Of a DNA stretch of 56,696 nucleotides, positions 3,245-23,091 are shown piece by piece. Numbering within the stretch: position 1 is the first letter of the stretch; each line of letters opens with the position of its first letter. Source of the stretch: an uncultured Gammaproteobacteria bacterium (GTDB lineage Bacteria; Patescibacteriota; Microgenomatia; 2-02-FULL-39-11); the NCBI GenBank assembly GCA_964354025.1, contig CAYGXQ010000006.1, positions 1 through 56,696 on the forward strand, read 5' to 3'. Below the pieces are notes generated by a model, which did not search any database, had not been told where the DNA came from, and worked only from the letters and a program-made list of their open reading frames with translations. The position numbers and the translations under genes are program-made.

Positions 3245-3898
3245 CTACTGGTTTATTTTTTTGGCGGTAACGATGAGTCTTTTACTGTCGGAGAATCCGG
3301 TGCAGGTATAAAGAGTCAAAACAGCTTCTTCCGTCGGTGCGATTACTTCTGTCTTAGTGGGAACAACATCTTTAATCTCCTCAATTTTATACGAATACCA
3401 TTTATCTTTGGTCATCACATAAACCAGTTCACCGAGTTTGGCACTTTTCAATGGTAAAAACAAACCTTTTCGCGCATGGGCAAAAATCACCTGATTGCCC
3501 GTTTCGTCGGGATAGCTTGAACCGCTGCCAAAACCGGCGCTGTCGGGGAAAACTTCCCAATAGCCTTTGACCACTTTGGCTTCTTTTACCGGAAGATCGA
3601 TATCCAAGTCGGGGATAATTATCCTAACCGGCGGGTTTTTCGGCTGATATTTATTTGCTTTGGCAGTCAATAACGTTTTATCCACGTCAACGGGTTCCTG
3701 TGAGAAAGAAGAAACTTCTATATTTGAATCCGTTTGGACTTGTTTCGGAAGAGGCCGTGACGAAAAAAATCCCAAAGTGAGAAGCAGTATTCCGCTGATC
3801 AAAAGAAACAGGCGGATACGCTTTTTCTCATCCTTCAGGATTCTTTTCAAAGTGACCTGATCGGGCTTGTTTTTGACCTTACGTAAAGTAGCAGACAT
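3245..3898 (-). CDS. Sortase
   Basis: N-terminal anchor; catalytic triad motifs VIFAH, LTLYTC and KRLIV. Confidence 0.92.
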   Translation of the reverse strand: MSATLRKVKNKPDQVTLKRILKDEKKRIRLFLLISGILLLTLGFFSSRPLPKQVQTDSNIEVSSFSQEPVDVDKTLLTAKANKYQPKNPPVRIIIPDLDIDLPVKEAKVVKGYWEVFPDSAGFGSGSSYPDETGNQVIFAHARKGLFLPLKSAKLGELVYVMTKDKWYSYKIEEIKDVVPTKTEVIAPTEEAVLTLYTCTGFSDSKRLIVTAKKINQ

Positions 3899-4401
3899 AA
3901 TACTCCTGTCAGGAGCATTATATCAGAAACCTTCAAATCATCACCCGAAGTGTCAGATAAACCTAAAACAGACGGCCCTCCTACCCTTAATCCTTCAGAA
4001 GAAGATCCACCTCCATCTGAACTGCTTGGTTTATCTTTCTCAGGTGACCAACCGCAGTATGGTCCGGTATAAGAATCGCCGTCGCATGCATCTTCATCAT
4101 TATTTGAAGATGAACCGCTGTCAGATGACGGTGTTTGGGTTGGCGCGCTGGTTGGAACACCACCAGTTCCTCCACCGGTAGTCGGTGTCGGTTGAACGGT
4201 CGTGGGACTCGGCGTTACCCCTGCGCAATTCGTACAATTTGGCGGATTATCACGAGCTGTTCTCGGATCATCAGCCGGATCTATATCTCTGATGTTTCCA
4301 CCAATATCCTGATTGTCCAATTGAGCGTAAACCCTGACATTGCCTACATTATATGTATAAGCAACCAGCATTAAAAACAAAATAAAAATAATTTTCTTCA
4401 C
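3847..4401 (-). CDS. Secreted P/T/S-rich protein with C-terminal sorting-signal-like tail (probable sortase substrate)
   Basis: GTG 4401 follows SD AAGGAGGTGA (4410-4419); signal peptide; LSDTSG + TM + basic tail; overlaps the sortase gene. Confidence 0.72.
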   Translation of the reverse strand: MKKIIFILFLMLVAYTYNVGNVRVYAQLDNQDIGGNIRDIDPADDPRTARDNPPNCTNCAGVTPSPTTVQPTPTTGGGTGGVPTSAPTQTPSSDSGSSSNNDEDACDGDSYTGPYCGWSPEKDKPSSSDGGGSSSEGLRVGGPSVLGLSDTSGDDLKVSDIMLLTGVLCLLLYVRSKTSPIRSL

Positions 4402-4456
4402 TCTTCTCTTCACCTCCTTTACCCGTTCAAATTTAAATCAAAAATTTGTTCGGGTT

Positions 4457-6793
4457 TTATAATACAATCTCTAATAAACTGTTTAAATATTTCGTCACAT
4501 CGATTCTTCTTCTCCGAAGAAGCATAAAAACGAAAGCAAAAGGAATAATCGACAACCACGATTCACTTACTTTTAAAGTCGCTCCGCCCAAAAGCATGCC
4601 GGCAAAGCTGGTTTCTGTGGCTTTAGCAAAAGCCGGTGAGAAGAAAATTCCGCGTTTGGTCGTGCTTGCTTGGGTGACAAGCGGATAAGGGGACGGATAG
4701 GCATACGAATATCTTTTGCCGCTGACAATTCTTCTTGAAGGCTGATTATACCGGATTGTATTTACCTGTCCTGCAACATCCTGATTATTATCAACTCCTG
4801 TATCTTCCATATATACGGTATCCGAAAACGAAACCTGATATCCATCAACGGTTGTCTGTTGAACAACGCTGTCTGTCCCTCCTGTGGAAGAAGGTAATGT
4901 ATCAACGACTGGAGACGGATTTTGAGTATCCTCCGGTACCTGCGTATTTTCATCCAGAGCAAATATATTGGCACTCGGCTGATAATTTGCCTGCTCGTCA
5001 GGCGGGATGACGTCGCCGAGGAATGTACCCAGAACATTGACTAAAACCGCTATAAATTTTTTGGCTACCACATTGGTATTAACCATATTGACCAGATTAA
5101 CTCCGACTTTGGCATCGCCCGTCTCAATATTGCCGCTGCCGGTATTGTATTTGACATCGTTATTACCGGTATCGGCCGCGGCGTTGATATTATTGGTAAT
5201 GCCTGCGGTATTGGTATTGGATAAAACTGAATCCGAACTGCTGGAGTAAGAAGAGCTATTGGTGGATAACGGCCCGGTTCCGGAATTTTCCGCTAAGACT
5301 CCTCCGGTCGTACTTTGGATCGGCATACCGTTGGAAAAGCTTGTCTGCCCCCATGGTGCTCCGATAATATGACCAACCCATTTGCCGGCTTCATTTACGA
5401 TAATCATCCAAACCGTACCGTCTTCGTTATTGACGTTTGTATTGGCGATTGTGGAATTGGCTACCGATGTATCAGCAGATCCGGTGGTTACCGACCCGCC
5501 GCCGGTATTGGTGGAAGCGTCATTATTTCCGGCATTGGCAGAGACACTGACGTTACTGTCAATATTGGCTGAATTGGCATTTTCAAAACTGGCAATATTG
5601 GAGTTATCTACTGAAGTTGTGTTTGTCGAACCCGGACTAGTGGCCGCATTTTCCGATAAAACTCCACCTCCTGAAGAAGCGGTAACGGTTGTTTGAGTAT
5701 TTTCATCTTTTGGTAAAACGATATTGCCGGCCATCGTCCCGAAAACATTGACTACTCCTATCAGCCACTGGCCGACATTCAGGTTTGTATTGGCTAAATT
5801 GATGATGTTGCCAAGCACCGTAGCATCACCGGTTTTGACCGTCCCGGAGCCGGTATTGTAGGAAGCGCTGTTTTCGCCGGTGATGGCGGCAATATCTATG
5901 TCATTGGTAATCGTCGCGTCGTTCCCGTTGGCTTCTTTAACCGTGAAACCGCTGGCAGCATCGGTATAATTTTCGGAGAGAGGTCCGGTGACGGCGTTTT
6001 TGGAAACCGTCCCTGAAGCGCTGCTAAATGAGTTTGAAGCGCTGTTATCGGCAAATTTAAAGACGATGTCGTTAAATTGCGTCCCGTAAACATTATAAAC
6101 CTGAAAACTGCCTAAACCTGAAATATTGCTGTTTAATTTATTCAAAAGATTGACCGTTGTTTGTGCATCGCCGGTGAAAACCTGGCCATCCAGGGTATTC
6201 ATGTTAGCATAGTTGAAGCCGGTGGAAGAAGCGGCACTGATTTTGTTCTCCAGATCGGCCAAATTCTTGTTAAGGACTTCCTGCCAATTCTCGTTTTTCT
6301 CCGTTGCCACGTTGGTGGAAAGCGGACCGGTGGCGATATTGGCCGGATCGTCAATACTGCCGGACCCGCTCCCATCACTCCCATCAGTTGAAGTCAAAGT
6401 CGTTCCGTCTCCCACAGTCGGTGTCGGTGAAGCATCCGTTGAAGATGTAATTTCTCCGGTCGGAGTGACAGATGACTGGGATTCTGTCTGTGTGGCCGGT
6501 GTATCAGTCGTTGTAGCCGGAGTATTAGTCGGCTGACTTGGTATGTTGGTCGGAGGACTGGAAGCTGGTGGATTCGAAGGCACAGATGGCGCCGATGGAG
6601 CCGTGGGAGCGGACGGCGGATTGGAAGGAAAGGATGGCGCCGATGGAGCCGTGGGAGCGGACGGCGCGGACGGTGGGCTCTCCTGAGCATATATTGCCGG
6701 TAAATACGGAGCACTTCTCCCGAAAAGAAGAGAAGCAATCAAAAAGATTGCCAGTAATTTTTTGATTTTAAAAATAAATTTACTCATTATCAA
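4457..6793 (-). CDS. Large secreted Asn/Thr/Gly-repeat protein (4 repeats) with P/S/T stalk and C-terminal TM anchor
   Basis: Signal peptide; PSAP region; four NxxTGPxSxN...TGxNxAxxNT...TGDA units; WLSIIPFAFVFMLLRRRR tail. Confidence 0.85.
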   Translation of the reverse strand: MIMSKFIFKIKKLLAIFLIASLLFGRSAPYLPAIYAQESPPSAPSAPTAPSAPSFPSNPPSAPTAPSAPSVPSNPPASSPPTNIPSQPTNTPATTTDTPATQTESQSSVTPTGEITSSTDASPTPTVGDGTTLTSTDGSDGSGSGSIDDPANIATGPLSTNVATEKNENWQEVLNKNLADLENKISAASSTGFNYANMNTLDGQVFTGDAQTTVNLLNKLNSNISGLGSFQVYNVYGTQFNDIVFKFADNSASNSFSSASGTVSKNAVTGPLSENYTDAASGFTVKEANGNDATITNDIDIAAITGENSASYNTGSGTVKTGDATVLGNIINLANTNLNVGQWLIGVVNVFGTMAGNIVLPKDENTQTTVTASSGGGVLSENAATSPGSTNTTSVDNSNIASFENANSANIDSNVSVSANAGNNDASTNTGGGSVTTGSADTSVANSTIANTNVNNEDGTVWMIIVNEAGKWVGHIIGAPWGQTSFSNGMPIQSTTGGVLAENSGTGPLSTNSSSYSSSSDSVLSNTNTAGITNNINAAADTGNNDVKYNTGSGNIETGDAKVGVNLVNMVNTNVVAKKFIAVLVNVLGTFLGDVIPPDEQANYQPSANIFALDENTQVPEDTQNPSPVVDTLPSSTGGTDSVVQQTTVDGYQVSFSDTVYMEDTGVDNNQDVAGQVNTIRYNQPSRRIVSGKRYSYAYPSPYPLVTQASTTKRGIFFSPAFAKATETSFAGMLLGGATLKVSESWLSIIPFAFVFMLLRRRRIDVTKYLNSLLEIVL
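6585..6666. repeat. Intragenic direct repeat, 34 bp x2 with 48-bp period, encoding PSAPTAPSAPS
   Basis: gatggcgccgatggagccgtgggagcggacggcg at 6585 and 6633. Confidence 0.9.
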
Positions 6794-6885: not shown

Positions 6886-8004
6886 TTAATTGATTACGGT
6901 AAAAGAATCGTTTACGTACACACAAATTCTTTTAACCAAATCTGCCATTCCAGCCAGTACCTCACCGCCACCGGTATTTTTGTTTGCCCTGTTTTCTCCT
7001 GTCTCAACATTATCAATGTCAATATTCTTCACATCCGCATCTTTATTGTGATTTTCTACTTCGACGTCCTGTGTATTAGTTAACGTTTCCTGATTTAATG
7101 ACATTGGGCCGGTAACAGCGTTACCGCTGACATTGGCAAATCCTCCCATTGCGGAAGTGACGCTGGTCGTATTGATGTTCCCTTTTGTCTCTAGACCAAG
7201 ATCACCGACTGCATTGCCGGATCTGATTTCTCCGCCAAGAGTATTCTTGGAAGCGGAATTATCACCGGTATCTACATGGGCGAAGACTTTGTTTTTCACA
7301 TCCAGATCGTTGTCATTGTCAACTGTTACGTCTGAATCATTTGTCATCGTCACAAAATTATCAGACATCGGGCCGGTGGTTTGGTTAGTGGCCTGATTGC
7401 CGCCTGTTCCACCTGCTCCACCGACTACTGCAGTGGCGCTGTCATTTACCCGGTTGACTACTCCGACTGCCAAATCAGCATCACCTGAATGGATATAAGC
7501 CGGACCGGTATTTTTGTTTGCCCGATTTTCGCCGGATTCAACAGATGCGTCTACTTTATTAAAAACCCGCGCATCGTTATCGTTCTCAACGAACACGTCA
7601 TTTGAATTTGCGATATCGATCTGATTAAGAGAATCCGGTCCTGTGACCTTATTATTACCAACATTGCCTGATGCTGCCGGTCCTCCGGAAACGGAAGTTG
7701 TATTCACGTTAGCCGTATTGGATATACCAGCATTGACTGATGCGTTGCCGGAAACCACAGATCCTCCAAGAGTATTCATGGAAGCGCTGTTTTCGCCGGT
7801 GTTGGCGGAAACATGAACGATATTTGTAATATCGGCATCATTTTTATTTTCCACTTTGACTTTGTTGGTATTGGTAACAGTACAAAAATTATCGGATAAA
7901 GGTCCGGTTGTCTCGTTTACGCAATTATTGCCTAAGGCAAAAACCGGTAAAACAGACGCGGCTAAAATAGCCATCGAACCTGCTATAGAAATAAATTTTT
8001 TCAT
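6886..8004 (-). CDS. Secreted Asn/Thr/Gly-repeat protein, 4 repeats in ABAB pattern, no anchor
   Basis: ATG 8004 after SD AAGGAGGTGA; signal peptide ending VFA; four ~88-aa repeats starting NxxTGP. Confidence 0.87.
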   Translation of the reverse strand: MKKFISIAGSMAILAASVLPVFALGNNCVNETTGPLSDNFCTVTNTNKVKVENKNDADITNIVHVSANTGENSASMNTLGGSVVSGNASVNAGISNTANVNTTSVSGGPAASGNVGNNKVTGPDSLNQIDIANSNDVFVENDNDARVFNKVDASVESGENRANKNTGPAYIHSGDADLAVGVVNRVNDSATAVVGGAGGTGGNQATNQTTGPMSDNFVTMTNDSDVTVDNDNDLDVKNKVFAHVDTGDNSASKNTLGGEIRSGNAVGDLGLETKGNINTTSVTSAMGGFANVSGNAVTGPMSLNQETLTNTQDVEVENHNKDADVKNIDIDNVETGENRANKNTGGGEVLAGMADLVKRICVYVNDSFTVIN

Positions 8005-8117
8005 TTTTCTTTTCACCTCCTTCCTTTATCTAAGTACAAGACTGCTGCCCTCTGTCGAGGATAAAATAAGTCTTGTCTGCAAAATTATTCATAAAATTCA
8101 TTATTCAAAAATTCAAT

Positions 8118-8175
8118 AAAAAAGAGGTAAGTTTCGCCATTTGGCGAATACTTACCTCCGTGTGCGGTCAGTAAG
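8118..8175 (-). promoter_or_regulatory. Leader terminator overlapped by a conserved antiterminator-like hairpin (copy 1)
   Basis: Minus strand CTTACT-GA-CCG-CACA-CGG-A-GGTAAG; its 3' side is the 5' arm of terminator GAGGTAAGT...ACTTACCTC-TTTTTT. Confidence 0.72.
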
Positions 8176-8182
8176 ACAATAA

Positions 8183-8356
8183 TTAAAGATCGAGTATGCT
8201 GTGACTCGTCTTTTTGATATTCCGTTCCGTTATCTGCGTCACTTTATGATCCTGGACTATCATTTCCACCGAACCCCAACCGCGGACATTTTTCAGAGCG
8301 GTTTTAACTTCTTCAATCAGATCTTTAGTGATTTTTTTGGTTGAGTAGTCAACCAT
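8183..8356 (-). CDS. YezD/DUF2292-like small protein (57 aa; below the ORF-track cutoff)
   Basis: MVDYSTKKITKDLIEEVKTALKNVRGWGSVEMIVQDHKVTQITERNIKKTSHSILDL; GSVExxVQDxxVxQI pattern. Confidence 0.8.
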   Translation of the reverse strand: MVDYSTKKITKDLIEEVKTALKNVRGWGSVEMIVQDHKVTQITERNIKKTSHSILDL

Positions 8357-8417
8357 TGGATTATTGGGACAGATTTTTCAGGCAGTGTAATTTCGGGGGC
8401 AGAAATAAATTTAAAAC

Positions 8418-8447
8418 AATATAATTAAATATGGTAACTCTTGTCAA
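8418..8447 (-). promoter_or_regulatory. Sigma70-like promoter for the DUF2292 ORF and repeat genes
   Basis: TTGACA-18-TATATT. Confidence 0.6.
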
Positions 8448-9064
8448 GAGGGAAAATTGACCGGAATGGTTTCTTTCTTTCCCTCCAACTCTCCAACAAT
8501 CAGTTTATAATCCTTGGCGTCATCCGGGATAACGAAACCGATTCTGTCGGTTTTGGTTGATATGGCGGCCACATTTACCAGATTGTTATGAAGGTCGGGT
8601 GCGTATTTATTATCCTCGTCCCCGTTATAAGACAACCTGACTAAGTCACCGGGCAAAATATTGTAGGCGGAGGTAGCATCATTCTTCAGCTCCAGGTTAA
8701 CGATCAAAAATAATTTGTTGTTTTTGGCGGTATAGACCTGATCTTTCACCAATACCTGACTGGTCTTTTCCGCGCTGGCAATTTTCAGTTTTATCTTATT
8801 GTTAAAGGCTGCTTTACCCTGATTGTTTAAAGCGGCGAAATCAAAGCTTTTGTCGACTTTGGTAACGATCGATTTACTTTTAACGACATTGGACGAAGCT
8901 TTTCGGCTTTGATTATATCCGACAGCTGCGATTATCAATATGACAACCAATATGCCGATCGCCAGTTTTTTTCTGGTCTTCAAAAAATCACTCACCTTAT
9001 TTTTCAAGTTACTGATTTTCGGAAGCAGTATTTCCGGGTCGAGATTGTTTTTGGTTTTAGCCAT
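8444..9064 (-). CDS. Membrane-anchored DUF4352-like Ig-fold protein
   Basis: One N-terminal TM; FLIVNLELKN...IGFVIP pattern. Confidence 0.65.
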   Translation of the reverse strand: MAKTKNNLDPEILLPKISNLKNKVSDFLKTRKKLAIGILVVILIIAAVGYNQSRKASSNVVKSKSIVTKVDKSFDFAALNNQGKAAFNNKIKLKIASAEKTSQVLVKDQVYTAKNNKLFLIVNLELKNDATSAYNILPGDLVRLSYNGDEDNKYAPDLHNNLVNVAAISTKTDRIGFVIPDDAKDYKLIVGELEGKKETIPVNFPS

Positions 9065-9268: not shown

Positions 9269-9580
9269 TTACATCTTAATCACTGTATTATTCTGGTTGA
9301 CGTTATTGTAAATATATGTACAAGACGTAGCATCACCAGATTTTACGTTTCCAGCCTTGGTATTAAAGTTCGCAGAATTACCACCTGAATTGACAACACT
9401 AGTTACTTCATTCATCACAAATGCATTATTTTCAGTTCTTACTCTTACAACATTCAGTTTAACATCAGCATTTACATTGATACTTCCTGGTCCCGTATTT
9501 TTGTTATATGCTGCAAAAGTTGGGACGACGGTTGCTAAAAGCATGCCGACGCCGACTGCTGCTCCTAAAATTTTTTTCAT
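9269..9580 (-). CDS. Small secreted protein with a single Asn/Thr/Gly repeat
   Basis: SD AAGGAGGTGA; signal peptide ending TFA; NKNTGPGSIN...NSGGNSANFNT...SGDA. Confidence 0.85.
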   Translation of the reverse strand: MKKILGAAVGVGMLLATVVPTFAAYNKNTGPGSINVNADVKLNVVRVRTENNAFVMNEVTSVVNSGGNSANFNTKAGNVKSGDATSCTYIYNNVNQNNTVIKM

Positions 9581-9628
9581 ATTTTCTTTTCACCTCCTTT
9601 CAAAATAGAATTTGTCCTCTTACTGCAC

Positions 9629-9666
9629 AAAAAAACACTCGAATCCGCCAGTTGGCGGATCGAGTG
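9629..9666 (-). terminator. Second leader terminator upstream of 9580
   Basis: CACTCGATCCGCCA-ac-TGGCGGATTCGAGTG-TTTTTTT. Confidence 0.7.
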
Positions 9667-9764
9667 CATCCTTTGGACAGAGGGCAGACAATAATTCATA
9701 TGGCAGTATTCGTTACTATTTTTCCGGTCAGAAAAATCCACCGGGCAGGTGTTCTTATATGGTG

Positions 9765-9820
9765 AAAAATAAAAGCAATCCTTCGACTATCTTAGGATTG
9801 CTTCCGTTTGCGGTCAGCAA
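9765..9820 (-). promoter_or_regulatory. Leader terminator overlapped by a conserved antiterminator-like hairpin (copy 2)
   Basis: TTGCT-GA-CCG-CAAA-CGG-A-AGCAA overlapping terminator AAGCAATCCT...AGGATTGCTT-TTATTTTT. Confidence 0.72.
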
Positions 9821-9831
9821 ACTCTATATCC

Positions 9832-9861
9832 ATAGTAGAACAATTTTTTTCACGCTGTCAA
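9832..9861 (-). promoter_or_regulatory. Sigma70-like promoter
   Basis: TTGACA-18-TACTAT just upstream of hairpin copy 2. Confidence 0.62.
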
Positions 9862-9933
9862 TAGGCAATTTTACTCTCCTTCGCCAGAAAGCTCTGGATG
9901 ATTTAGCCGGAGATTAATGGCGTTAGGGAGAGT

Positions 9934-9964
9934 TATCCGCCGAAGCCTTAGGCGAAGGCGGATA
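9934..9964. repeat. REP-like palindrome
   Basis: tatccgccgaagccttaggcgaaggcggata. Confidence 0.6.
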
Positions 9965-9979
9965 GTTCCGAAGAGTATG

Positions 9980-10303
9980 TTATTTATACACTGGTTCCAC
10001 CAAACCCTCTTTTTGACCGTTAACCGTAATCCCCAAAGACCATCCTAAAGTATTAGCTACTGCTATTCCGACCCGCAGTCCGGTATATGATCCGGGACCG
10101 GTATGGACGCGGATACCGGTCAGGTCTTTTGGTGTTAAATGATTAAGTTTTAGTATTTCCTCAATCATCGGCAATAAAACCTGCGAAGTCCAACTTTCAG
10201 TCTTTTGGATTAATTCCTTGCGTTTATCATCCATTTCCAGACTTACAATCACTTTCTTATTATCCGACGTGTCGATATAGAGAGAAATATTTTTATTTTT
10301 CAT
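9980..10303 (-). CDS. tsaB: t6A biosynthesis protein TsaB (short, N-terminal lobe only)
   Basis: LYIDTS and GPGSYTGLRVG; clustered with tsaC and tsaE. Confidence 0.88.
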   Translation of the reverse strand: MKNKNISLYIDTSDNKKVIVSLEMDDKRKELIQKTESWTSQVLLPMIEEILKLNHLTPKDLTGIRVHTGPGSYTGLRVGIAVANTLGWSLGITVNGQKEGLVEPVYK

Positions 10304-10310
10304 ACTAGTG

Positions 10311-10406
10311 TGTCATCCCGAGTCCGCCAGCTGGCGGATCCGAGGGATCTTCCAACTTGAGAAGATTCCTCCACTCATCCACTATCGTGGAATCGGTCGG
10401 AATGAC
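10311..10406. repeat. Palindromic MITE/RPE-like element (TGTCATCCCG...CGGAATGAC)
   Basis: Near-identical to 55335-55419; overlaps the tsaC 3' end. Confidence 0.85.
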
Positions 10407-10995
10407 TACGAGTAATTTTATAATCAATGTGAATGGCTCCTTGACGAATGATCTTCCACCGTGTGACCGAACAATCGACAACTGTCGATACGTGTCCCGT
10501 TTGGCATTCTCCCTTTACAACATAATCAACCAGCTTTATCAATTCCGGGTCAAGATCCTCATATTTATACGGTGTTTTCTGCCCGTGGAAGTTAGCCGAC
10601 GGTCCGAGAACCGGTACACCTGCCGACTTTATCAATTCCAAAGGAATAATATGATCAGGCATCCGTATTCCCAAAGTCTTACCATTTCCCCGAACCAAAG
10701 CCGGCACTTTCTCGCGTTTGCAATCGAAAATAATCGTCAAGGCGCCCGGCCAGTACTTTTGAACCAGTTTACGGATTTTATCCGGAAGAGGGGAGTACCA
10801 ATAATTTTGCGCCATCGAAAACGAATCGGCTAAAACCGGTGTCGCCTGACTTTCAGGCCTTTTTCGGATATTAAATAATCTTTCCACGGAATCAGGCTTG
10901 TCTATCCGGCAGCCGATTCCGTAAGCCGTATCTGTGGGAAAAATGACGATCCCGCCTTCTTTGATAATTTTTATCGCCTGTGTCAAATCAGTCAT
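10375..10995 (-). CDS. tsaC: Threonylcarbamoyl-AMP synthase (Sua5/YrdC)
   Basis: FPTDTAYGIG, WPGALT, GIRMP, PSAN, STVVD, RQGAI. Confidence 0.93.
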   Translation of the reverse strand: MTDLTQAIKIIKEGGIVIFPTDTAYGIGCRIDKPDSVERLFNIRKRPESQATPVLADSFSMAQNYWYSPLPDKIRKLVQKYWPGALTIIFDCKREKVPALVRGNGKTLGIRMPDHIIPLELIKSAGVPVLGPSANFHGQKTPYKYEDLDPELIKLVDYVVKGECQTGHVSTVVDCSVTRWKIIRQGAIHIDYKITRSHSDRFHDSG

Positions 10996-17363: not shown

Positions 17364-18644
17364 ATGTTACTCAAATCATGGCGCTTTATTAAACGTAAAT
17401 TCGAACGTTTGGGACCTGGTTTCATCACCGGCGCGGCTGACGACGACCCTTCCGGTATCGCCACTTATTCCATTACCGGAGCCCAGTTTGGATATAAACT
17501 GACGTGGTTATCTATTTTTCTCTTGCCAATGATGTATGTAATCCAGGAGATGTGCGGACGGATTGGGATGGTTTCCGGGATGGGTTTAGCCGGCGCAATA
17601 AGAAAATATTATTCCAAAAAGTTACTTTATACGGCAGTCATATTGCTGGTGATTGCCAATACGATAAATATCGGTGCTGATCTGGGAATTATGGCTGCCT
17701 CTCTCCAAATGCTATTCGGACTGCCTGTCTTTTTCTGGCTGGTTCTTATCACCTGTCTAATTGTCGGTTTGGAGGTATTCGTTTCTTACGATAAGTATTC
17801 ACGATATCTGAAATGGATGGCTCTTTCTGTTTTGGTTTACGGATTAACGGCAATAATTGTCAAGCAACCGGTATTGACCATTATCCGTTTCATGTTCATA
17901 CCTCACATAGAATTTGACCTTGCCTATATCATGACGATTGTTGCCTGCCTTGGAACATCAATTTCCCCATATTTATTTTTCTGGCAAACTTCAGAACAGG
18001 TTGAAGAGCAGATAAAGGAAGGAAAAATCAGTGACTTTGAAGAATCGCCCATAGTCATAGAAAATGAAATCAAACACATGCGAAAAGATACTTTTATCGG
18101 CATGGGATTTTCCAATCTGATTTTTCTATTTATCGTCCTCACGACGGCCGCTACCCTTCATCAAAACGGAATTTTTGACATCGAAACTCCCCAAGAGGCC
18201 GCCCTTGCCCTTCAACCGCTGGCCGGTAACTTTGCCTATCTGTTATTTACAATCGGGATAATCGGTATCGGTTTTGAATCCGTCCCGATTCTGGCCGGAG
18301 CAGTAGCTTATGCGGTTGCCGACACTTTTGGTTTTAAAGAGGGCTTAGCGAAAAAATTTACCGAAGCAAAAGCTTTTTATCTCACCATTGGTTTAGCTAC
18401 CTTTATCGGAGTGCTTATGAATCTTATCGGAATTAATGTCATCAAAGCTCTTTATTATGCGGCAATCGTAAATTGTATAGTCGCTGTGCCGTTGATTGCC
18501 ATCATTATCAAGCTGGCCAGTGACGAAAGGATCGTCGGAAAACACAAAAGCAGTCCTTGGGGGAGAAATATTGCCTGGTTGACTTTTAGCTTTATGGGGT
18601 TGGCTTCACTGGCAATGATTTATAATCTTATCAGAAGCGGCTAA
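17364..18644 (+). CDS. NRAMP-family divalent metal transporter
   Basis: GPGFITGAADDDPSG, GTSISPY; about 11 TM. Confidence 0.9.
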   Translation: MLLKSWRFIKRKFERLGPGFITGAADDDPSGIATYSITGAQFGYKLTWLSIFLLPMMYVIQEMCGRIGMVSGMGLAGAIRKYYSKKLLYTAVILLVIANTINIGADLGIMAASLQMLFGLPVFFWLVLITCLIVGLEVFVSYDKYSRYLKWMALSVLVYGLTAIIVKQPVLTIIRFMFIPHIEFDLAYIMTIVACLGTSISPYLFFWQTSEQVEEQIKEGKISDFEESPIVIENEIKHMRKDTFIGMGFSNLIFLFIVLTTAATLHQNGIFDIETPQEAALALQPLAGNFAYLLFTIGIIGIGFESVPILAGAVAYAVADTFGFKEGLAKKFTEAKAFYLTIGLATFIGVLMNLIGINVIKALYYAAIVNCIVAVPLIAIIIKLASDERIVGKHKSSPWGRNIAWLTFSFMGLASLAMIYNLIRSG

Positions 18645-19969
18645 ATACTATTTACCAATAAATTACTAATCCACGGTTGAATTCTTGTAATGTCTGCCAA
18701 TACTTCCCGCTTTGTTTCAATCCTGCCGGTTTCTTCATCTTCGCTTCCGGTTTCTTTTTTAAATCTTTTCATAAAAATAAATTCATCTTCCTTCAGTTTT
18801 TCCAGATAATAATCGCGGCGAAGCAGTATCGGTTTGTCTTTTTGGATTTGATAGACACCATAACCTTCAAGTTTCGAAACAAACGGTTTATCTGAAGTTT
18901 GCCGGAGAGTAATTTGTGAACCGATTATCCGGTCGCTTAAATCTGCATTTACAGGAATAGTCTTTTCTAAAAATGAAGCCAAATGATAAATCAAAAGCGG
19001 TATTCTTCCCAACCCGCTTTCCAATCGGGCATAAAAGGATGATGAAGCCGTCAATCGGGCGTTATTTTCAGATAAATAAATTTTTCCGGACACTTTTTCT
19101 ACCAAAAAATCCAAACCGAAGAAGCCTCTGAAACCCGCCTTATCCATCCACCGGCCAACCTCTTGGGAGATCCATTGGATCTGGGCAACCTGTTTTTGAT
19201 CTAAAAACTTAACCGGCCACTGCCGGCCGCACGTCACGCCTGGCTTTGAATAGAGTTGGGAGATATTGCTTATCTGTATTGCCGGCGGGCTGACAAAAAT
19301 CCGATGGTCATAAAGACAACAGTTATTCAAAACCGTAAAACAATCCGGAATGTGTTTGCCTATTTTGACCAAAGTTTGCGGAAATTTTCCGGCCACAGCC
19401 AAAAAATCCTTGTTGTTATCGATAAAATAAGTCGTCTTGCCGGCCCAACCATGGCCGAATTGGATTACTATCTTTTTCCCTAATTGCTTGGACAGTTCCT
19501 CATAATTCCTTTCTCCCAGTATTCCGAAAACGGTCGGTAAGGCATATTCCGGCATCAGTTGCATGATCGATTTATAGAAAGTGACTTTATTTTCAAACTG
19601 TTCATTTAAAGAAGCACTGTTGCCCATAACACTCCAACCGTATTTTTGTAAAATCGAATCTATTTTGACTGAAGGCTTGAAAAAAGCGATATTCGGCTTG
19701 CCGGAAGAATTTTTACGGATATAGTCCAAAACAGCCGGGTTCTCAAGCAGTTTCCCGGTATTATTTGTTTCAGTTGATTCCCGAGGGTTAATTTCTTCAA
19801 GACAAAAGATTCTTGCTCCCTGTCGGCGAAGAATTGGAATCAACGGATCGGAGTAAGAACATAAAATGTGGTAGTGAGGCAAGATATCCTCCGGTCCCAT
19901 ACCTCTTTTTACGTCGGGAGAAACAAAGAAAATGCTTTCCGGAAATATATCGGCGAAATTATTATTCAT
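18641..19969 (-). CDS. ATP-grasp fold ligase of unknown substrate
   Basis: FENK, QFGHGWAGKTT, GFFGLDFL, ENNAR. Confidence 0.8.
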   Translation of the reverse strand: MNNNFADIFPESIFFVSPDVKRGMGPEDILPHYHILCSYSDPLIPILRRQGARIFCLEEINPRESTETNNTGKLLENPAVLDYIRKNSSGKPNIAFFKPSVKIDSILQKYGWSVMGNSASLNEQFENKVTFYKSIMQLMPEYALPTVFGILGERNYEELSKQLGKKIVIQFGHGWAGKTTYFIDNNKDFLAVAGKFPQTLVKIGKHIPDCFTVLNNCCLYDHRIFVSPPAIQISNISQLYSKPGVTCGRQWPVKFLDQKQVAQIQWISQEVGRWMDKAGFRGFFGLDFLVEKVSGKIYLSENNARLTASSSFYARLESGLGRIPLLIYHLASFLEKTIPVNADLSDRIIGSQITLRQTSDKPFVSKLEGYGVYQIQKDKPILLRRDYYLEKLKEDEFIFMKRFKKETGSEDEETGRIETKREVLADITRIQPWISNLLVNSI

Positions 19970-20813
19970 AATTTTTTCCGGTTAAAATGCAAACCGGATG
20001 GTGATATTTCATCCCCTGCTTTTCTGCTTTCCAAAGGGCGGCTAAAGCGGCGGCTCCCTCGTATGAACAGTGCAAATCATTTTGCAGCAGCCATTTTTGT
20101 GCAACTATCATTTCCTGGTCAGAAATGACCCACCCAAATCCTTTACTTTTTTTGACATATTCAATGATTTCCGCATAAAGGGGAGAATATTTGGCCACAA
20201 TTGCGTCAGCCAGGCTGTTTTTTGTTTCAGAATATTTTTTATCAAAAAGAGAACTCAAAGGATGAACTGCTTCCGTCTGCACAACATGGATGGCCGGCAA
20301 TTTCTTTCCGGCTTTTTGATAACCTCGGACCATTCCGCAGACTGTCGCACCGCTACTGACTGGAAGGAAAATTGCATCAATGTTTATCCCTGTTTCGATC
20401 AGCTCACAAGGTAATGTCATATAGCCAATTAGGGCATTTTCATCCTTTGATTGCCTGAGATTAAAAGCCTGATTAGTTTTGGCAAATTGAAAAGCACTGC
20501 TGATGGGTTTTAGAGTTGAAATAATTTGACAGGAAAGCTTTTTCAACTGATTTAATTTTTGAGATTTGATTTTCGGGGAAACAAAAACTGTTAACTTGAT
20601 ACCGGCCAAACGGCAGTAATGGGAAGCGGAAATGGCCGCATTACCGGAAGAGGAAATCACCGCTTTTTTTATCCCTTTTTCCTCAAGTTTGGATACCTGA
20701 TAGGCCATAGCCCGGTCTTTGTGGGAACCGGTTGGATTTTCATATTCGCACTTAAAGTATATTCCCTCTACTTGTTTCAATTGTGTCTGTCCAATTATTT
20801 CTTGTCTAATCAT
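19962..20813 (-). CDS. PLP-dependent fold-type II enzyme (threonine synthase/dehydratase-like)
   Basis: KCEYENPTGSHKDR, SSSGNAA, LPVSSG, ILTG. Confidence 0.87.
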   Translation of the reverse strand: MIRQEIIGQTQLKQVEGIYFKCEYENPTGSHKDRAMAYQVSKLEEKGIKKAVISSSGNAAISASHYCRLAGIKLTVFVSPKIKSQKLNQLKKLSCQIISTLKPISSAFQFAKTNQAFNLRQSKDENALIGYMTLPCELIETGINIDAIFLPVSSGATVCGMVRGYQKAGKKLPAIHVVQTEAVHPLSSLFDKKYSETKNSLADAIVAKYSPLYAEIIEYVKKSKGFGWVISDQEMIVAQKWLLQNDLHCSYEGAAALAALWKAEKQGMKYHHPVCILTGKNYE

Positions 20814-20839
20814 AAAAAATATGCTTTAATTATACCAGT

Positions 20840-21019
20840 ATGACTGATAAACAAAAATCAACAACTGATAAAGCTGTCTGTCCGGAATGCGATTCCCTAT
20901 TTGCGGCAAAGGCCGTGCTGAACGTTGGTGAAATTATGGAATGTTCATCATGCGGTACGGAATCAGAGGTCATTTCCCTCTCCCCTCTTACCCTTGCTCC
21001 TTTGGAGGAAGAGAAGTGA
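20840..21019 (+). CDS. LysW-like zinc-ribbon carrier protein (59 aa) with non-canonical EEEK C-terminus; not in ORF track
   Basis: MTDKQKSTTDKAVCPECDSLFAAKAVLNVGEIMECSSCGTESEVISLSPLTLAPLEEEK; CPEC/GE/CxxCG/EV/P-L-L pattern of LysW. Confidence 0.8.
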   Translation: MTDKQKSTTDKAVCPECDSLFAAKAVLNVGEIMECSSCGTESEVISLSPLTLAPLEEEK

Positions 21020-22391
21020 TTATTTTTCTTAATGATTTTTTTCCTTTGATAAAATCCGTGTAGAAAAATCCGGCCGCGGGAGAAAGTAAGATATTATCTC
21101 CTTCTTCTGCTTTTTGATAAGCAAACTCTATTGCCTGTCTAAAATCCTTAAGAATAGTTAATTGTTTTTCCGGTAACTGTTTTTGAAATAATTTACATAA
21201 CTGGCTTTCCAAAAGAATTACTTCTTTAGTTATATCAAATATTTTCGTAATGAAATCCCGGTAATTAATCCCTTTGGTCTTTCCTCCTAAAATTAAAATA
21301 GTATTTTTCCCTAATTTTCTCAGTGCTTCTTCTGTTGCCCAGGGAGTCGTGCTTTTCAAATCATCATAAAATCCGACACCGGATTTTTCTCCAAGAAATT
21401 CCAATCGGGCCGGTAAAGTCAAAACTTTTGGAATATTGTTTATTACAGTTAGTAAGTCAATTCCAAGAATATTTAAAACGGTGGATGAAGCCAATATATT
21501 TGACATATATTGATCACTTTTTATATTCATAAGTCTGGAAAAATATTCTTGAATACTTTTTATATTCATAATTTTATTTGCAGCGCTGAAATAATTGACT
21601 TTTGATTTTAACCTAGCCCCAATTTCCCGTAACTGAGGAATATCCCAATTCAACACCGAATAGTCTTCTTCTTTTTGTTTTTCAAATAGGGATATTTTTA
21701 ATTTTATATACTCTTCCCAAGTGACTTCGTCCAAATGGTTTGGGTAAAGGTTAGTGATTACGCCGATATGAGGACTGCGGGAAATTCCGTCTTGGAGTTG
21801 ACGGTGCGAGACTTCCAGTATCAGAATATCTTTATTTGTCATCCGGTCGAATTGATCTAAAACCTGAACCTTCCAAGTCTCGTTCCCGGCAAAATAGACA
21901 TTTTGTCGTTGAAGTTTAAGTATCTGATAAATAATATTGGCTACACTTCCCTTTCCGACCGTACCGGTAACGGCAATAATTTTTGCCGGGGTTAAATCAA
22001 GATACAGTCTGGTTAAAGAATAAAAAGGGATGTTTTTATTTTTAACTGCCCATAAAGGAGCGTTATAACTTTTATAAAGCCTCCATGATTGGGGTACAAA
22101 AATAATTTCAGCAGACTGGATACCATAAAGATATTTGTCTTTTGAATAAAAAACCGTTTCAGAAAGGTCTTTTTCAAATTGTCGAAAATATTCATCCCTT
22201 TCGTCAACCGTTAGACCTTTGTGCCAAAGCTTATAACTTTTTTCCAGTGAATTTTCCAGCAATAGGTCATGGACGGTAATATTTTGGATTCCGTTTTTCA
22301 CCAGAAACCTGAGAATATTGCTTCCTTCGGCTCCGGTTACTCCGACGACATGAATTTTTTTATTTTTAATTTCTTCTAAAAATTTATCCAT
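20988..22391 (-). CDS. MurD-like amino-acid ligase (divergent)
   Basis: TGTVGKGS, LEVS, NLYPNHLD, RLE, DDLKST, GGK, LLSPAA. Confidence 0.82.
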   Translation of the reverse strand: MDKFLEEIKNKKIHVVGVTGAEGSNILRFLVKNGIQNITVHDLLLENSLEKSYKLWHKGLTVDERDEYFRQFEKDLSETVFYSKDKYLYGIQSAEIIFVPQSWRLYKSYNAPLWAVKNKNIPFYSLTRLYLDLTPAKIIAVTGTVGKGSVANIIYQILKLQRQNVYFAGNETWKVQVLDQFDRMTNKDILILEVSHRQLQDGISRSPHIGVITNLYPNHLDEVTWEEYIKLKISLFEKQKEEDYSVLNWDIPQLREIGARLKSKVNYFSAANKIMNIKSIQEYFSRLMNIKSDQYMSNILASSTVLNILGIDLLTVINNIPKVLTLPARLEFLGEKSGVGFYDDLKSTTPWATEEALRKLGKNTILILGGKTKGINYRDFITKIFDITKEVILLESQLCKLFQKQLPEKQLTILKDFRQAIEFAYQKAEEGDNILLSPAAGFFYTDFIKGKKSLRKIITSLPPKEQG

Positions 22392-22392
22392 A

Positions 22393-23091
22393 TCAGGAAA
22401 ATATTTTTAACCGATAGATGCCGTCACCTTTATGGGGATAATAATATCTTTGACCGAAATTTTCTTCTCTTTTTGTTTTCTCCAACCAATTTTGTTTCTC
22501 TAAAGGCAAATCTTCCTTTAAAGTTATAAAACCCAAATGGACGCCTTGCGTTGACGTTATGTGTGACGAATGGATGTAGGTAACCGAGTTGTTTTCTGAT
22601 TTTATTATTACCACCACATGTTTGCCTCCCATCATCCTGATCAGGTCGCCTGTTTGTACCTCTTTCAAATCATTTATTTCTATACAGTAGTTGATGTCTG
22701 TAATTTTTTTAACATTCACGCGGCTAATGCCTTCTGGAAAAACTTGGGTCAGGTTATCAACCGAACAGTTTTTATATCTCAACCTGACTAGTTCTTCCAA
22801 AACTCTGAAAGCCAACCCGGAACAGTCAATACCTATTCTCTCTTTCTTGGCAAATTTTTGGATATATAAAGGTGTAAACAGATCTATGTTTAAATTATCC
22901 GGCAGCAATCTTTTTTGAAGTTCGGATTTAATCTCTTCTGCTTTTCCTTTCCCGTTTTGGAAACCGCGGATGACCACTAAACCGTTTTTAATTTTGTTTG
23001 ACCAGTAAGGACAAGGTACGCTGATTTCTCCCAAATTAATCTTGAGATATTGCTTAATAAATCGGTATAAGCCTTCAGTTGATTTATCCAT
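22393..23091 (-). CDS. NlpC/P60-like cysteine hydrolase
   Basis: GIDCSG, GDLI, HVV, YIHSS. Confidence 0.7.
   Translation of the reverse strand: MDKSTEGLYRFIKQYLKINLGEISVPCPYWSNKIKNGLVVIRGFQNGKGKAEEIKSELQKRLLPDNLNIDLFTPLYIQKFAKKERIGIDCSGLAFRVLEELVRLRYKNCSVDNLTQVFPEGISRVNVKKITDINYCIEINDLKEVQTGDLIRMMGGKHVVVIIKSENNSVTYIHSSHITSTQGVHLGFITLKEDLPLEKQNWLEKTKREENFGQRYYYPHKGDGIYRLKIFS

Follow-up and report, generated by a model that had tools for sequence, protein, structure and literature searches.

The window analyzed in this work, a stretch of 56,696 nucleotides (contig CAYGXQ010000006.1 of assembly GCA_964354025.1), is contig C6 of a genome with 100% completeness and a size of 1.48 Mb, whose closest named relatives are metagenome-assembled genomes (MAGs) of Candidatus Microgenomates and Gottesmanbacteria. 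Between positions 18641 and 23091 it carries a small open reading frame (ORF) for a LysW-like protein of 59 amino acids (aa), together with genes of an ATP-grasp ligase, a pyridoxal phosphate (PLP) enzyme, an atypical MurD (MurD*) and an NlpC/P60-like hydrolase. This gene set (hereafter, the cassette, which at many of the loci described below comes without MurD*), which an earlier annotation of the window (the original prediction) had taken for a candidate carrier-protein pathway, is the subject of the present analysis. Its features are as follows:

18641..19969, minus strand: orphan ATP-grasp ligase, 442 aa, PRK06524-like, with a predicted small-protein partner (fold model, predicted complex)
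19962..20813, minus strand: PLP fold-type II enzyme, 283 aa, threonine-synthase/serine-dehydratase-derived (PF00291, E 8.4e-51)
20814..20839: divergent spacer of 26 bp between the PLP gene and the small ORF (ORF coordinates)
20840..21019, plus strand: putative carrier of 59 aa, from a Lys-tailed (...PLEEEK) subfamily of the LysW zinc-ribbon proteins (PF21344, alignment, tail conservation)
20988..21019: convergent 3'-end overlap of the small ORF and MurD*, 32 bp (ORF coordinates)
20988..22391, minus strand: atypical MurD-subfamily ligase (MurD*), 467 aa (TIGR01087, 190.2 bits against 211.95)
22393..23091, minus strand: putative cytoplasmic NlpC/P60-like cysteine hydrolase, 232 aa from the Met at 23091, the ORF being open to 23166 (PF00877, E 0.028; DCSG...H...H motif)

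The small ORF starts with ATG, stops with TGA and encodes a protein ending in LAPLEEEK. The LysW zinc-ribbon pattern that the original prediction had read in it was recovered by PF21344 (Zn_ribbon_LysW; cut-off 27 bits) with 44.1 bits and E 1.5e-11. The score fell short of the LysW equivalog TIGR01206 (30.5 against 53.2 bits), as one would expect of a protein lacking the EDWGE tail. The family profile of the ORF matched LysW of T. thermophilus (3wwl, E 5.4e-10) in an alignment spanning from the first CPEC to ...PEE, after which the canonical AEDWGE tail would come next. An alternative code or read-through of the TGA codon was considered and rejected: the read-through peptide was hydrophobic and unlike EDWGE, and an ORF of the window was read as RF2 (prfB). 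The 59-aa ORF is a genuine gene, and its product belongs to the LysW zinc-ribbon family as a Lys-tailed member. Its surroundings also agreed with the earlier description: the divergence of 26 bp from the PLP gene was exact, the overlap with the end of the MurD* gene was confirmed at 32 bp, and the PALP fold-type II enzyme, the ATP-grasp fold, the Mur ligase and the NlpC/P60-like protein were all recognized as such. Because the small ORF and MurD* share DNA at their 3' ends, their C-terminal tails, -EEEK and the C-terminal extension of MurD* (...SLPPKEQG), are read from opposite strands of the same DNA.

A profile search for LysW-like tails and their gene neighborhoods, named as a check in the original prediction, found the tail strongly kept. 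The four Cys residues, G30, E34, E43, P49, E57, and K59 were invariant in the alignment of 21 cassette-linked small proteins, E58 was nearly so, and all 21 ended with Lys, almost always as x-E-E-K. For a broader comparison, 80 loci were fetched via the ATP-grasp gene, one genome per species; the terminal Lys was found in 74 of the 75 small ORFs at these loci, the tails being EEEK (29), IEEK (23), VEEK (15), LEEK (3), and FEEK, TEEK, IEQK, VETK, and EEKG (one each). The Lys tail is retained also where no MurD* overlaps the small ORF, as at locus L043. Of 61 related genomes, 29 gave a PF21344 match; within the own family, 19 of 20 genomes did so, the genome of the window having a single such locus. 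Among the PF21344 proteins of the relatives, 22 end with ...E-E-K and six with canonical EEDWG[EQ]; two additional loci, outside the tail pattern search, end with PIEEEK and LIEEDK.

Searching 1.84 billion representatives with a profile yielded 2466 proteins (E ≤ 1e-3); the top 150 include 40 that end with E-[ED]-K and three that end with DWGx. Some of the Lys-tailed matches carry the source names Ca. Dormibacteria, candidate division CPR2 and, in one case, a 'Micrarchaeia' MAG. In a tree of LysW-like proteins built with the tails removed, the Lys-tailed proteins clustered beyond shuffled labels (10 changes against a mean of 22.1; none of 500 shuffles was as low), although with 54 columns and unsettled bootstrap values they were not resolved as one clade. 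Other forms of the LysW zinc ribbon were also encountered: proteins of about 115–185 aa in which two or three ribbons stand in tandem and the C-terminus is basic, and a single ribbon followed by a long poly-acidic tail, e.g., ...EEEDWDDWDEEEEED.

The 442-aa protein had no Pfam match at E ≤ 0.1, RimK included, and the best curated model, NF005096/PRK06524 ('biotin carboxylase'), gave 113.9 bits against a cut-off of 684. Its AlphaFold2 (AF2) model had a pLDDT of 91 and found at least 500 matches in the PDB with Foldseek at E ≤ 1e-3 (best E 1.8e-17, TM about 0.6); all those listed were ATP-grasp carboxylases or ligases, namely biotin-dependent carboxylases and PurK, a generic assignment. Only unnamed ATP-grasp clusters were retrieved from the ESM Atlas. 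By its modeled fold, the protein is an ATP-grasp ligase. D287, E301, N303, and R305 are invariant, the first three of which we take to be Mg ligands. The nearest solved sequences were weak: BesA (L-propargylglycine–L-glutamate ligase, E 0.005), an ATP-grasp peptide ligase (0.015), and PGM1 (0.09).

Structure prediction of the complex between this ligase (with ATP and Mg) and the small protein, also proposed originally, gave ipSAE values of 0.34, 0.75, and 0.75, with a median of 0.75; the best of three controls was 0.02. Among solved complexes, 58 of 80 attained a value of 0.75, as did 2 of 110 mismatched pairs. The runs agreed in at least 19% of contacts, and the pLDDT of the partner was at least 70. 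On the side of the small protein, the predicted interface comprises the zinc knuckle (residues 15–20) and the tail (53–59); on the side of the ligase, it comprises residues 17–19, 69–71, 97–102, 171–179, and 195–200, including the invariant D19, F97, K98, G174, W175, and A176. Binding of the small protein by the ATP-grasp ligase is a prediction of the model, and the carrier role given to the small protein in the original prediction stands in part, on its LysW homology and on this predicted complex.

The PLP enzyme contains K32 in the motif NPTGSxKDR, invariant in 21 of 21 sequences. It scored well below the threonine synthase (ThrC) models (PRK08329, 123 against 358 bits; TIGR00260, 64.5 against 167.1 bits), and its TIGR00260/ThrC match starts at model position 69, the N-terminal part of ThrC being missing. 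Ala59 and Ala127 align to T88 and R160 of TtThrC, which are presumably the phosphate-binding positions of ThrC. The closest proteins were short ThrC and serine dehydratase/racemase proteins; SbnA and cysteine synthases were also among the matches. K86 and K262 are invariant features specific to the family, and R120 is nearly invariant. Judging by these sequence features, the enzyme is not a bona fide threonine synthase.

The NlpC/P60-like protein was below the cut-off of PF00877 (14.8 against 23 bits, E 0.028). A DCSG...H...H pattern was nevertheless evident: D89-C90-S91-G92 and H158 do not vary, and H174 is kept in at least 90% of the 20 sequences compared. No N-terminal hydrophobic or signal-like segment was found in the alignment. 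The AF2 model (pLDDT 94) had as its top Foldseek matches in the PDB MepS/Spr, P60 domains, CwlO, and glutathionylspermidine (Gsp) amidase; all of them were NlpC/P60 or CHAP proteins, and the matches were weak (E 1.5e-3 or worse, TM 0.25–0.54). NlpC/P60 enzymes cut gamma-D-Glu-diamino acid bonds, and Gsp amidase cuts an amide to an alkylamine; taken together, NlpC/P60 and CHAP enzymes cut gamma-glutamyl and alkylamide bonds.

MurD* matched TIGR01087 over residues 115–441 (model positions 82–420), while canonical MurDs of the same class reach 255–422 bits with this model. The domains PF08245 (E 1.2e-23) and PF02875 (E 1.7e-9) were detected, and the motifs GTVGKGS, NHLD, DD.KSTTP, and GG..K are conserved. 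The best relative in the PDB was MurD (3lk7, 172 bits); the N-terminal 110 or so residues had no match in the MurDs of the PDB. MurD* and its Dormibacteria-like homologs have about 21 additional residues inserted into the N-domain and are shortly extended at the C-terminus, both features being absent in the one canonical MurD of the class that was compared. The overlap with the small ORF may account for the similarity of this C-terminal extension between phyla. An Asn at the position of E. coli D182 was considered as a signature of MurD* and dropped, ordinary MurDs having D, T or E there. In the genome of the window, mraY is followed directly by ftsW (contig C9), and MurD* is the only MurD-like gene, so it presumably performs the housekeeping MurD step.

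The PLP gene adjoined the ATP-grasp gene at 78 of the 80 loci, at 75 of which 300 bp or more were available upstream of the PLP gene; the small ORF was present at all 75, always antisense to the rest of the cassette. Such an arrangement of the small ORF, PLP and ATP-grasp genes is far beyond chance. Recurring neighbors of the small gene were the 283-aa PALP enzyme, the 442-aa ATP-grasp ligase and a protein of about 230 aa with DCSG, H158, and H174. Two architectures were distinguished. The Gottesman-type (16 loci labeled Gottesmanbacteria, including the window) has the order NlpC/P60–MurD-like–small ORF (antisense)–PLP–ATP-grasp. The Shapiro-type (60 loci labeled Shapiro-, Roizman- or Woesebacteria and others) has the order MraY–NlpC/P60–small ORF (antisense)–PLP–ATP-grasp–FtsW–MurG. 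MraY was detected at 57 of the 60 Shapiro-type loci, and NlpC/P60 was detected at 50 of these and at 15 of the 16 Gottesman-type loci; in one genome (G172), NlpC/P60 was missing from the locus and encoded elsewhere. According to Pfam, Shapiro-type loci are flanked by MurC, MurB, MurA, Ddl, MurF, and MraY on one side and by FtsW, MurG, and FtsA on the other. In a canonical genome of the class, the order is MurF–MraY–MurD–FtsW–MurG; the cassette, lying between mraY and ftsW, therefore occupies the murD slot. No MurD-like gene was found at the 60 Shapiro-type loci, and the proposal in the original prediction that a product is passed to peptidoglycan by the MurD-like ligase is thus not general.

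The cassette is fixed in whole families (18 of 18, 7 of 7, and 18 of 18 genomes). Two readings of individual loci were rejected: an ORF downstream of the PLP gene at locus L059, first taken for a divergent ATP-grasp, looked like a membrane protein after alignment, and the real gene lies elsewhere in that genome (G025); an apparent PLP–LysW fusion at L155 proved to be a small ORF on the opposite strand.

Metagenomes were scanned for the small protein with a profile built on the closer alignment, the diverse alignment having no conserved stretch. Contigs were found encoding small proteins 72–80% identical to the Dormibacteria-named ones. Those of these Dormibacteria-like contigs that are of sufficient length to reveal the neighbors (L160–L163) carry what fits on them of the Gottesman-type order, and L161 holds all five genes in that order; thus, the five-gene unit is common to two distant phyla. 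The small ORF is again antisense, ends with ...FEDEEK and, at L161 (6977-7150, plus strand), overlaps MurD* (7116-8810, minus strand) by a similar 35 bp (7116-7150). The MurD-like proteins are of 564 aa (L161) and 516 aa (L162) and lie just below the cut-off of TIGR01087 (195.7 and 202.5 bits). The NlpC/P60 protein has 293 aa and matches PF00877 with E 2.3e-20 and 73 bits; tblastn detected no homology between its gene and the NlpC/P60-like protein of the window. Flanking genes of the Dormibacteria-like module encode a J-domain protein and VWA proteins, without genes of the division and cell wall (dcw) cluster: the features at 3487-4587, 9558-10436, and 12657-14093 of L161 and at 10443-12431 of L162 are a DnaJ-type J-domain, a protein of 292 aa with a weak EccA1_N-like match, and VWA proteins. 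The co-occurrence of the small ORF with ATP-grasp, PLP and NlpC/P60 enzymes, expected in the original prediction, therefore extends over two phyla.

Distribution of the cassette was compared with that of canonical MurD. Among 61 relatives, 27 had the cassette, 29 had canonical MurD, five had neither and none had both. Among 301 genomes of the class, these numbers were 52, 197, 52, and zero, respectively, with the cassette called at an ATP-grasp score of at least 260 bits (gene context inspected in 23 of the 52), canonical MurD called at E ≤ 1e-60, and related genomes not being independent; the 197 include one unpublished genome (G086), on which the result does not depend. Weaker ATP-grasp hits in G151 and G207 were 22–27% identical paralogs in other contexts and were not counted as the cassette. 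Distant ATP-grasp paralogs of 22–27% identity were also seen at L150 (4923-6356), L151 (4085-5560), and L152 (1025-2449), in genomes with canonical MurD; two of the three were scanned and gave 163–168 bits with PRK06524, and that of L152 adjoins two Ddl-like genes. Five cassette genomes outside the family had only MurC, MurE, and MurF (plus FolC in one), and a MurD* profile found nothing more in five cassette genomes without the gene, four of which are among the genomes with MurC, MurE, and MurF only. The link to peptidoglycan made in the original prediction is supported in this form, by position (in the murD slot or beside an atypical MurD) and by exclusion from canonical MurD in 301 genomes. 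Canonical MurI was over its cut-off in 10 of the 61 relatives, none of which is among the 27 cassette genomes; this anti-correlation was at first regarded as strong evidence and then downgraded, only 10 of 61 genomes having MurI and the independent lineages being few.

The components suggest a load–modify–release logic on a carrier, tied to the MurD step, i.e., the addition of residue 2 (normally D-Glu) to UDP-MurNAc-L-Ala. On balance, we consider it probable, by a modest degree, that the module is a carrier-protein pathway serving this step of peptidoglycan precursor synthesis and probably handling glutamate, which would be loaded on Lys59, modified, and released. The ATP-grasp ligase would bind the small protein and load its tail with an acidic amino acid (probably L-Glu); we favor a bond between the side-chain carboxyl of the amino acid and the epsilon-amine of the terminal Lys59, which would leave the alpha-amino and alpha-carboxyl groups free. 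The PLP enzyme would then act on the tethered free alpha-amino acid head, L-to-D inversion being the most likely reaction. MurD*, or another ligase where MurD* is absent, would couple UDP-MurNAc-L-Ala to the tethered amino acid, and the NlpC/P60 hydrolase would cut the gamma-glutamyl-Lys amide, releasing the product and regenerating the carrier. We infer the substrate, the attachment atom and the order of these steps from the gene set. The epsilon-amine route is favored because the PLP enzyme needs a free alpha-amine, because an invariant terminal Lys stands in place of the terminal Glu of LysW, and because AslA/RacD offers a precedent of an ATP-grasp enzyme acylating a Lys epsilon-amine at a ...Glu-Lys end (PMC4155827). 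A fuller version, in which several uncultured phyla use a protein-carrier route instead of the MurI/MurD chemistry, with L-Glu gamma-linked to the Lys epsilon-amine, inverted by the PLP enzyme, coupled, and released by NlpC/P60, is in our view less likely than not.

Several observations weigh against this interpretation. The known protein-modifying ATP-grasps (LysX/ArgX, RimK, TTL) activate a carboxylate of the protein and do not acylate a protein amine. One of the three runs of the complex scored just 0.34, and a LysW/ArgX complex has been solved (3vpb), so the score may partly reflect memory of that structure. In the window, the tail codons of the small ORF overlap the tail of MurD* on the opposite strand; therefore, a part of the local conservation is shared by both genes. 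MurD* retains a Lys aligned to E. coli K348 and the C-terminal motif SP...F, which fits free Glu equally well, and Shapiro-type genomes have no second ligase to join UDP-MurNAc-L-Ala. A D-amino acid might also be supplied from outside the cassette, by a racemase of the asp_race family (G000:C8:1203-1892, L158; TIGR00035, 175.8 bits against a cut-off of 93.1) encoded in the genome of the window. Comparable weak matches to glut_race were found in only 5 of 20 other genomes of the family, and IlvE is the sole class-IV aminotransferase of the own genome. The anti-correlation with MurI comes from few independent lineages (seven cassette families), and many genomes have neither. Finally, of the 230 MurE-positive genomes, 185 have no cassette, and 26 of these 185 also have no canonical MurD at E ≤ 1e-60. 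Two near-complete genomes of this kind, G138 and G070, had no MurD, small ORF, PLP gene or ATP-grasp gene; at L198 (G138:C1:28000-47900) and L199 (G070:C8:8000-27900), mraY is followed directly by ftsW, and MurE and MurF are present. MurD can evidently be missing in this class without the cassette, and replacement of MurD by the cassette is therefore not forced. G070 also encodes a protein of 265 aa, 26% identical to the NlpC/P60-like protein and adjoining MurE.

Loading could instead follow the polarity of LysX/ArgX, RimK, and TTL, with the small protein giving a carboxylate (alpha of Lys59 or gamma of Glu57/58) and the ATP-grasp ligase adding the amino group of the substrate. Lys59 would then be a recognition element or would be removed and re-added in a cycle (NlpC/P60 as carboxypeptidase, ATP-grasp as re-ligase), and the PLP enzyme would carry out beta-replacement via a side-chain nucleophile of the tethered amino acid or act on a free substrate. 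All characterized protein-directed ATP-grasp ligases work in this way; E57 is invariant and E58 nearly so, the tail is within the predicted interface, and in the homologous LysW the tail carboxyl is the attachment site (PMC10433800). We still regard such a polarity as unlikely, since an N-acylated amino acid cannot form an external aldimine, so that no role on the carrier is obvious for the conserved PLP partner; the LysW mechanism also does not explain an invariant C-terminal Lys instead of Glu, and the ATP-grasp ligase is outside the RimK/LysX family, with weak nearest solved sequences in BesA, an ATP-grasp peptide ligase, and PGM1 (E 0.005–0.09). The carrier might alternatively serve another wall block: the diamino-dicarboxylic acid of position 3, a side-chain or cross-bridge residue such as D-Asp, or a lanthionine- or lysinoalanine-type product, the tie to murD being positional only. 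This would suit the PLP enzyme, which lacks the ThrC phosphate-binding positions and has SbnA and cysteine synthases among its matches, fold-type II enzymes commonly catalyzing beta-replacement; the existence of MurD-less genomes without the cassette agrees with it, as does the AslA/RacD pair, where an ATP-grasp and a racemase act on a Lys epsilon-amine (PMC4155827). It is improbable in our estimation, leaving unexplained the perfect exclusion from canonical MurD in 301 genomes, the exact occupancy of the murD slot and the special MurD subfamily adjoining in two phyla.

The small protein could also be no carrier at all and act as a regulatory or adaptor subunit or a pseudo-substrate, its ...Glu-Lys-COOH end mimicking the end of UDP-MurNAc-tripeptide and tuning the ATP-grasp ligase and/or MurD*. 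The predicted binding involves no covalent chemistry, the tail may be likened to the end of the stem peptide, and the gene is always antisense to the enzymes, which makes separate control possible. We find this distinctly improbable, because the only known function of the LysW family is covalent carriage (PMC10433800) and the accompanying hydrolase and PLP enzyme fit load–modify–release better. A tail with both Glu and Lys could in principle be a graspetide-like substrate, i.e., a ribosomally synthesized and post-translationally modified peptide (RiPP) unrelated to the wall, in which the ATP-grasp forms an intramolecular Glu-Lys isopeptide, and graspetide ATP-grasps do make Lys-Glu lactams. 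No leader/core architecture or transporter was seen at the module, which in minimal genomes forms part of the dcw cluster, has become fixed in whole families and excludes MurD, and such an origin is very improbable. An ordinary LysW/ArgW carrier of lysine or arginine synthesis with its partners elsewhere is already contradicted and has next to no probability, although a homolog of 73% identity is called 'lysine biosynthesis protein LysW' by NCBI. The EDWGE motif is absent. The whole genome of the window, beyond the window itself, contained no gene of the RimK/LysX family (the best rimK_fam match, on another contig, had 29.3 bits against a cut-off of 143.4) and no match to ArgC/LysY; LysZ, LysJ, and LysK were not searched for separately. 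Thus, the canonical partners that the original prediction had noted as lacking in the window have no LysX or LysY match in the genome either, the tail is conserved and the enzymes co-occur in two phyla, these being the points on which it could have failed. A Gottesmanbacteria relative (G007) has both a canonical cluster of LysW (ending with EDWGQ), LysX, ArgC, and homocitrate-type genes and a separate Lys-tailed cassette; therefore, the two are not redundant. Its canonical LysW (L154, G007:C1:72500-84700; small ORF 6038-6223, minus strand, ending with EEDWGQ) neighbors LysX (TIGR02144, 306 bits), ArgC/LysY, homocitrate-synthase-like, homoaconitase large subunit, and homoisocitrate-dehydrogenase-like genes, which, by sequence, amounts to an alpha-aminoadipate lysine pathway in a genome of the Candidate Phyla Radiation (CPR), apart from the Lys-tailed cassette.

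Cytoplasmic synthesis of peptidoglycan precursors (MurA–F, MurI, Ddl) ranks with the most conserved bacterial pathways and with those most targeted by drugs, and to our knowledge MurD2/MurL is the only described alternative at the D-Glu step. If the carrier-protein reading is true, the module would be a second, mechanistically different alternative, fixed in whole CPR families and present in Dormibacteria-like genomes, in which stem-peptide residue 2 is both produced and installed on a protein. LysW-type carriers would be extended from amino-acid and natural-product synthesis to that of the cell wall with a new tail chemistry, and loading on the Lys epsilon-amine would be opposite in polarity to every amino-group carrier protein known. 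For a direct test of the hypothesis, five small soluble proteins would suffice. A full-text literature search (supplements excluded; judged from the listings) found no description of this module.

Among known systems, LysW/ArgW with LysX/ArgX (Thermus, Sulfolobus, Thermococcus; the carrier AmCP of Streptomyces) share with the module the PF21344 zinc ribbon, a small acidic protein with a flexible C-terminal tail, and an ATP-grasp ligase as a partner, which is here predicted to bind. The differences are in the tail, which is x-E-E-K here, whereas LysW carriers have a C-terminal EDWGE motif with the terminal Glu as the attachment site (PMC10433800); in the ligase, which is outside the RimK/LysX family; and in the partners, which are a PLP enzyme, NlpC/P60, and a MurD-like ligase in a cell-wall context, without ArgC/LysY. 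As far as its sequences tell, the module resembles an amino-group carrier system yet fails the defining features of LysW: the tail motif, the LysX-type partner, and the downstream enzymes (ArgC/LysY were those tested).

The closest functional analog, at the same pathway step, is MurD2/MurL (PMC8788868). It likewise provides an alternative for stem residue 2 without the usual D-Glu supply and combines an atypical MurD with a neighbor of new function, and its ATP-driven inversion after ligation is a precedent for ligating first and inverting later. MurL is described as a single protein without known domains acting on the UDP-bound dipeptide, in contrast to the carrier, PLP enzyme, ATP-grasp ligase, and hydrolase found here. 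The Glu197/Arg358 pair of MurD2 given there is absent from MurD*, which has Asn and Lys at the aligned positions; the position aligned to Glu197 varies among ordinary MurDs too.

[quoted passage not shown] Likened by description, the two systems have in common an ATP-grasp acting on an acidic amino acid and an enzyme making the D-isomer encoded alongside; the AslA/RacD acceptor is UDP-MurNAc-pentapeptide and not a protein, the racemase is PLP-independent, and neither a carrier nor a hydrolase takes part.

The pairing of a ligase with a hydrolase has its own parallels. In glutathionylspermidine synthetase/amidase and in tubulin TTL/vasohibin, an ATP-grasp ligase and a papain-fold cysteine hydrolase make and break the same amide. 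These systems differ from the module in protein families and substrates and have neither a PLP enzyme nor a link to the cell wall. Gsp amidase, however, is among the fold matches of the NlpC/P60-like protein, and the -EEY end of tubulin resembles the -EEK end of the small protein.

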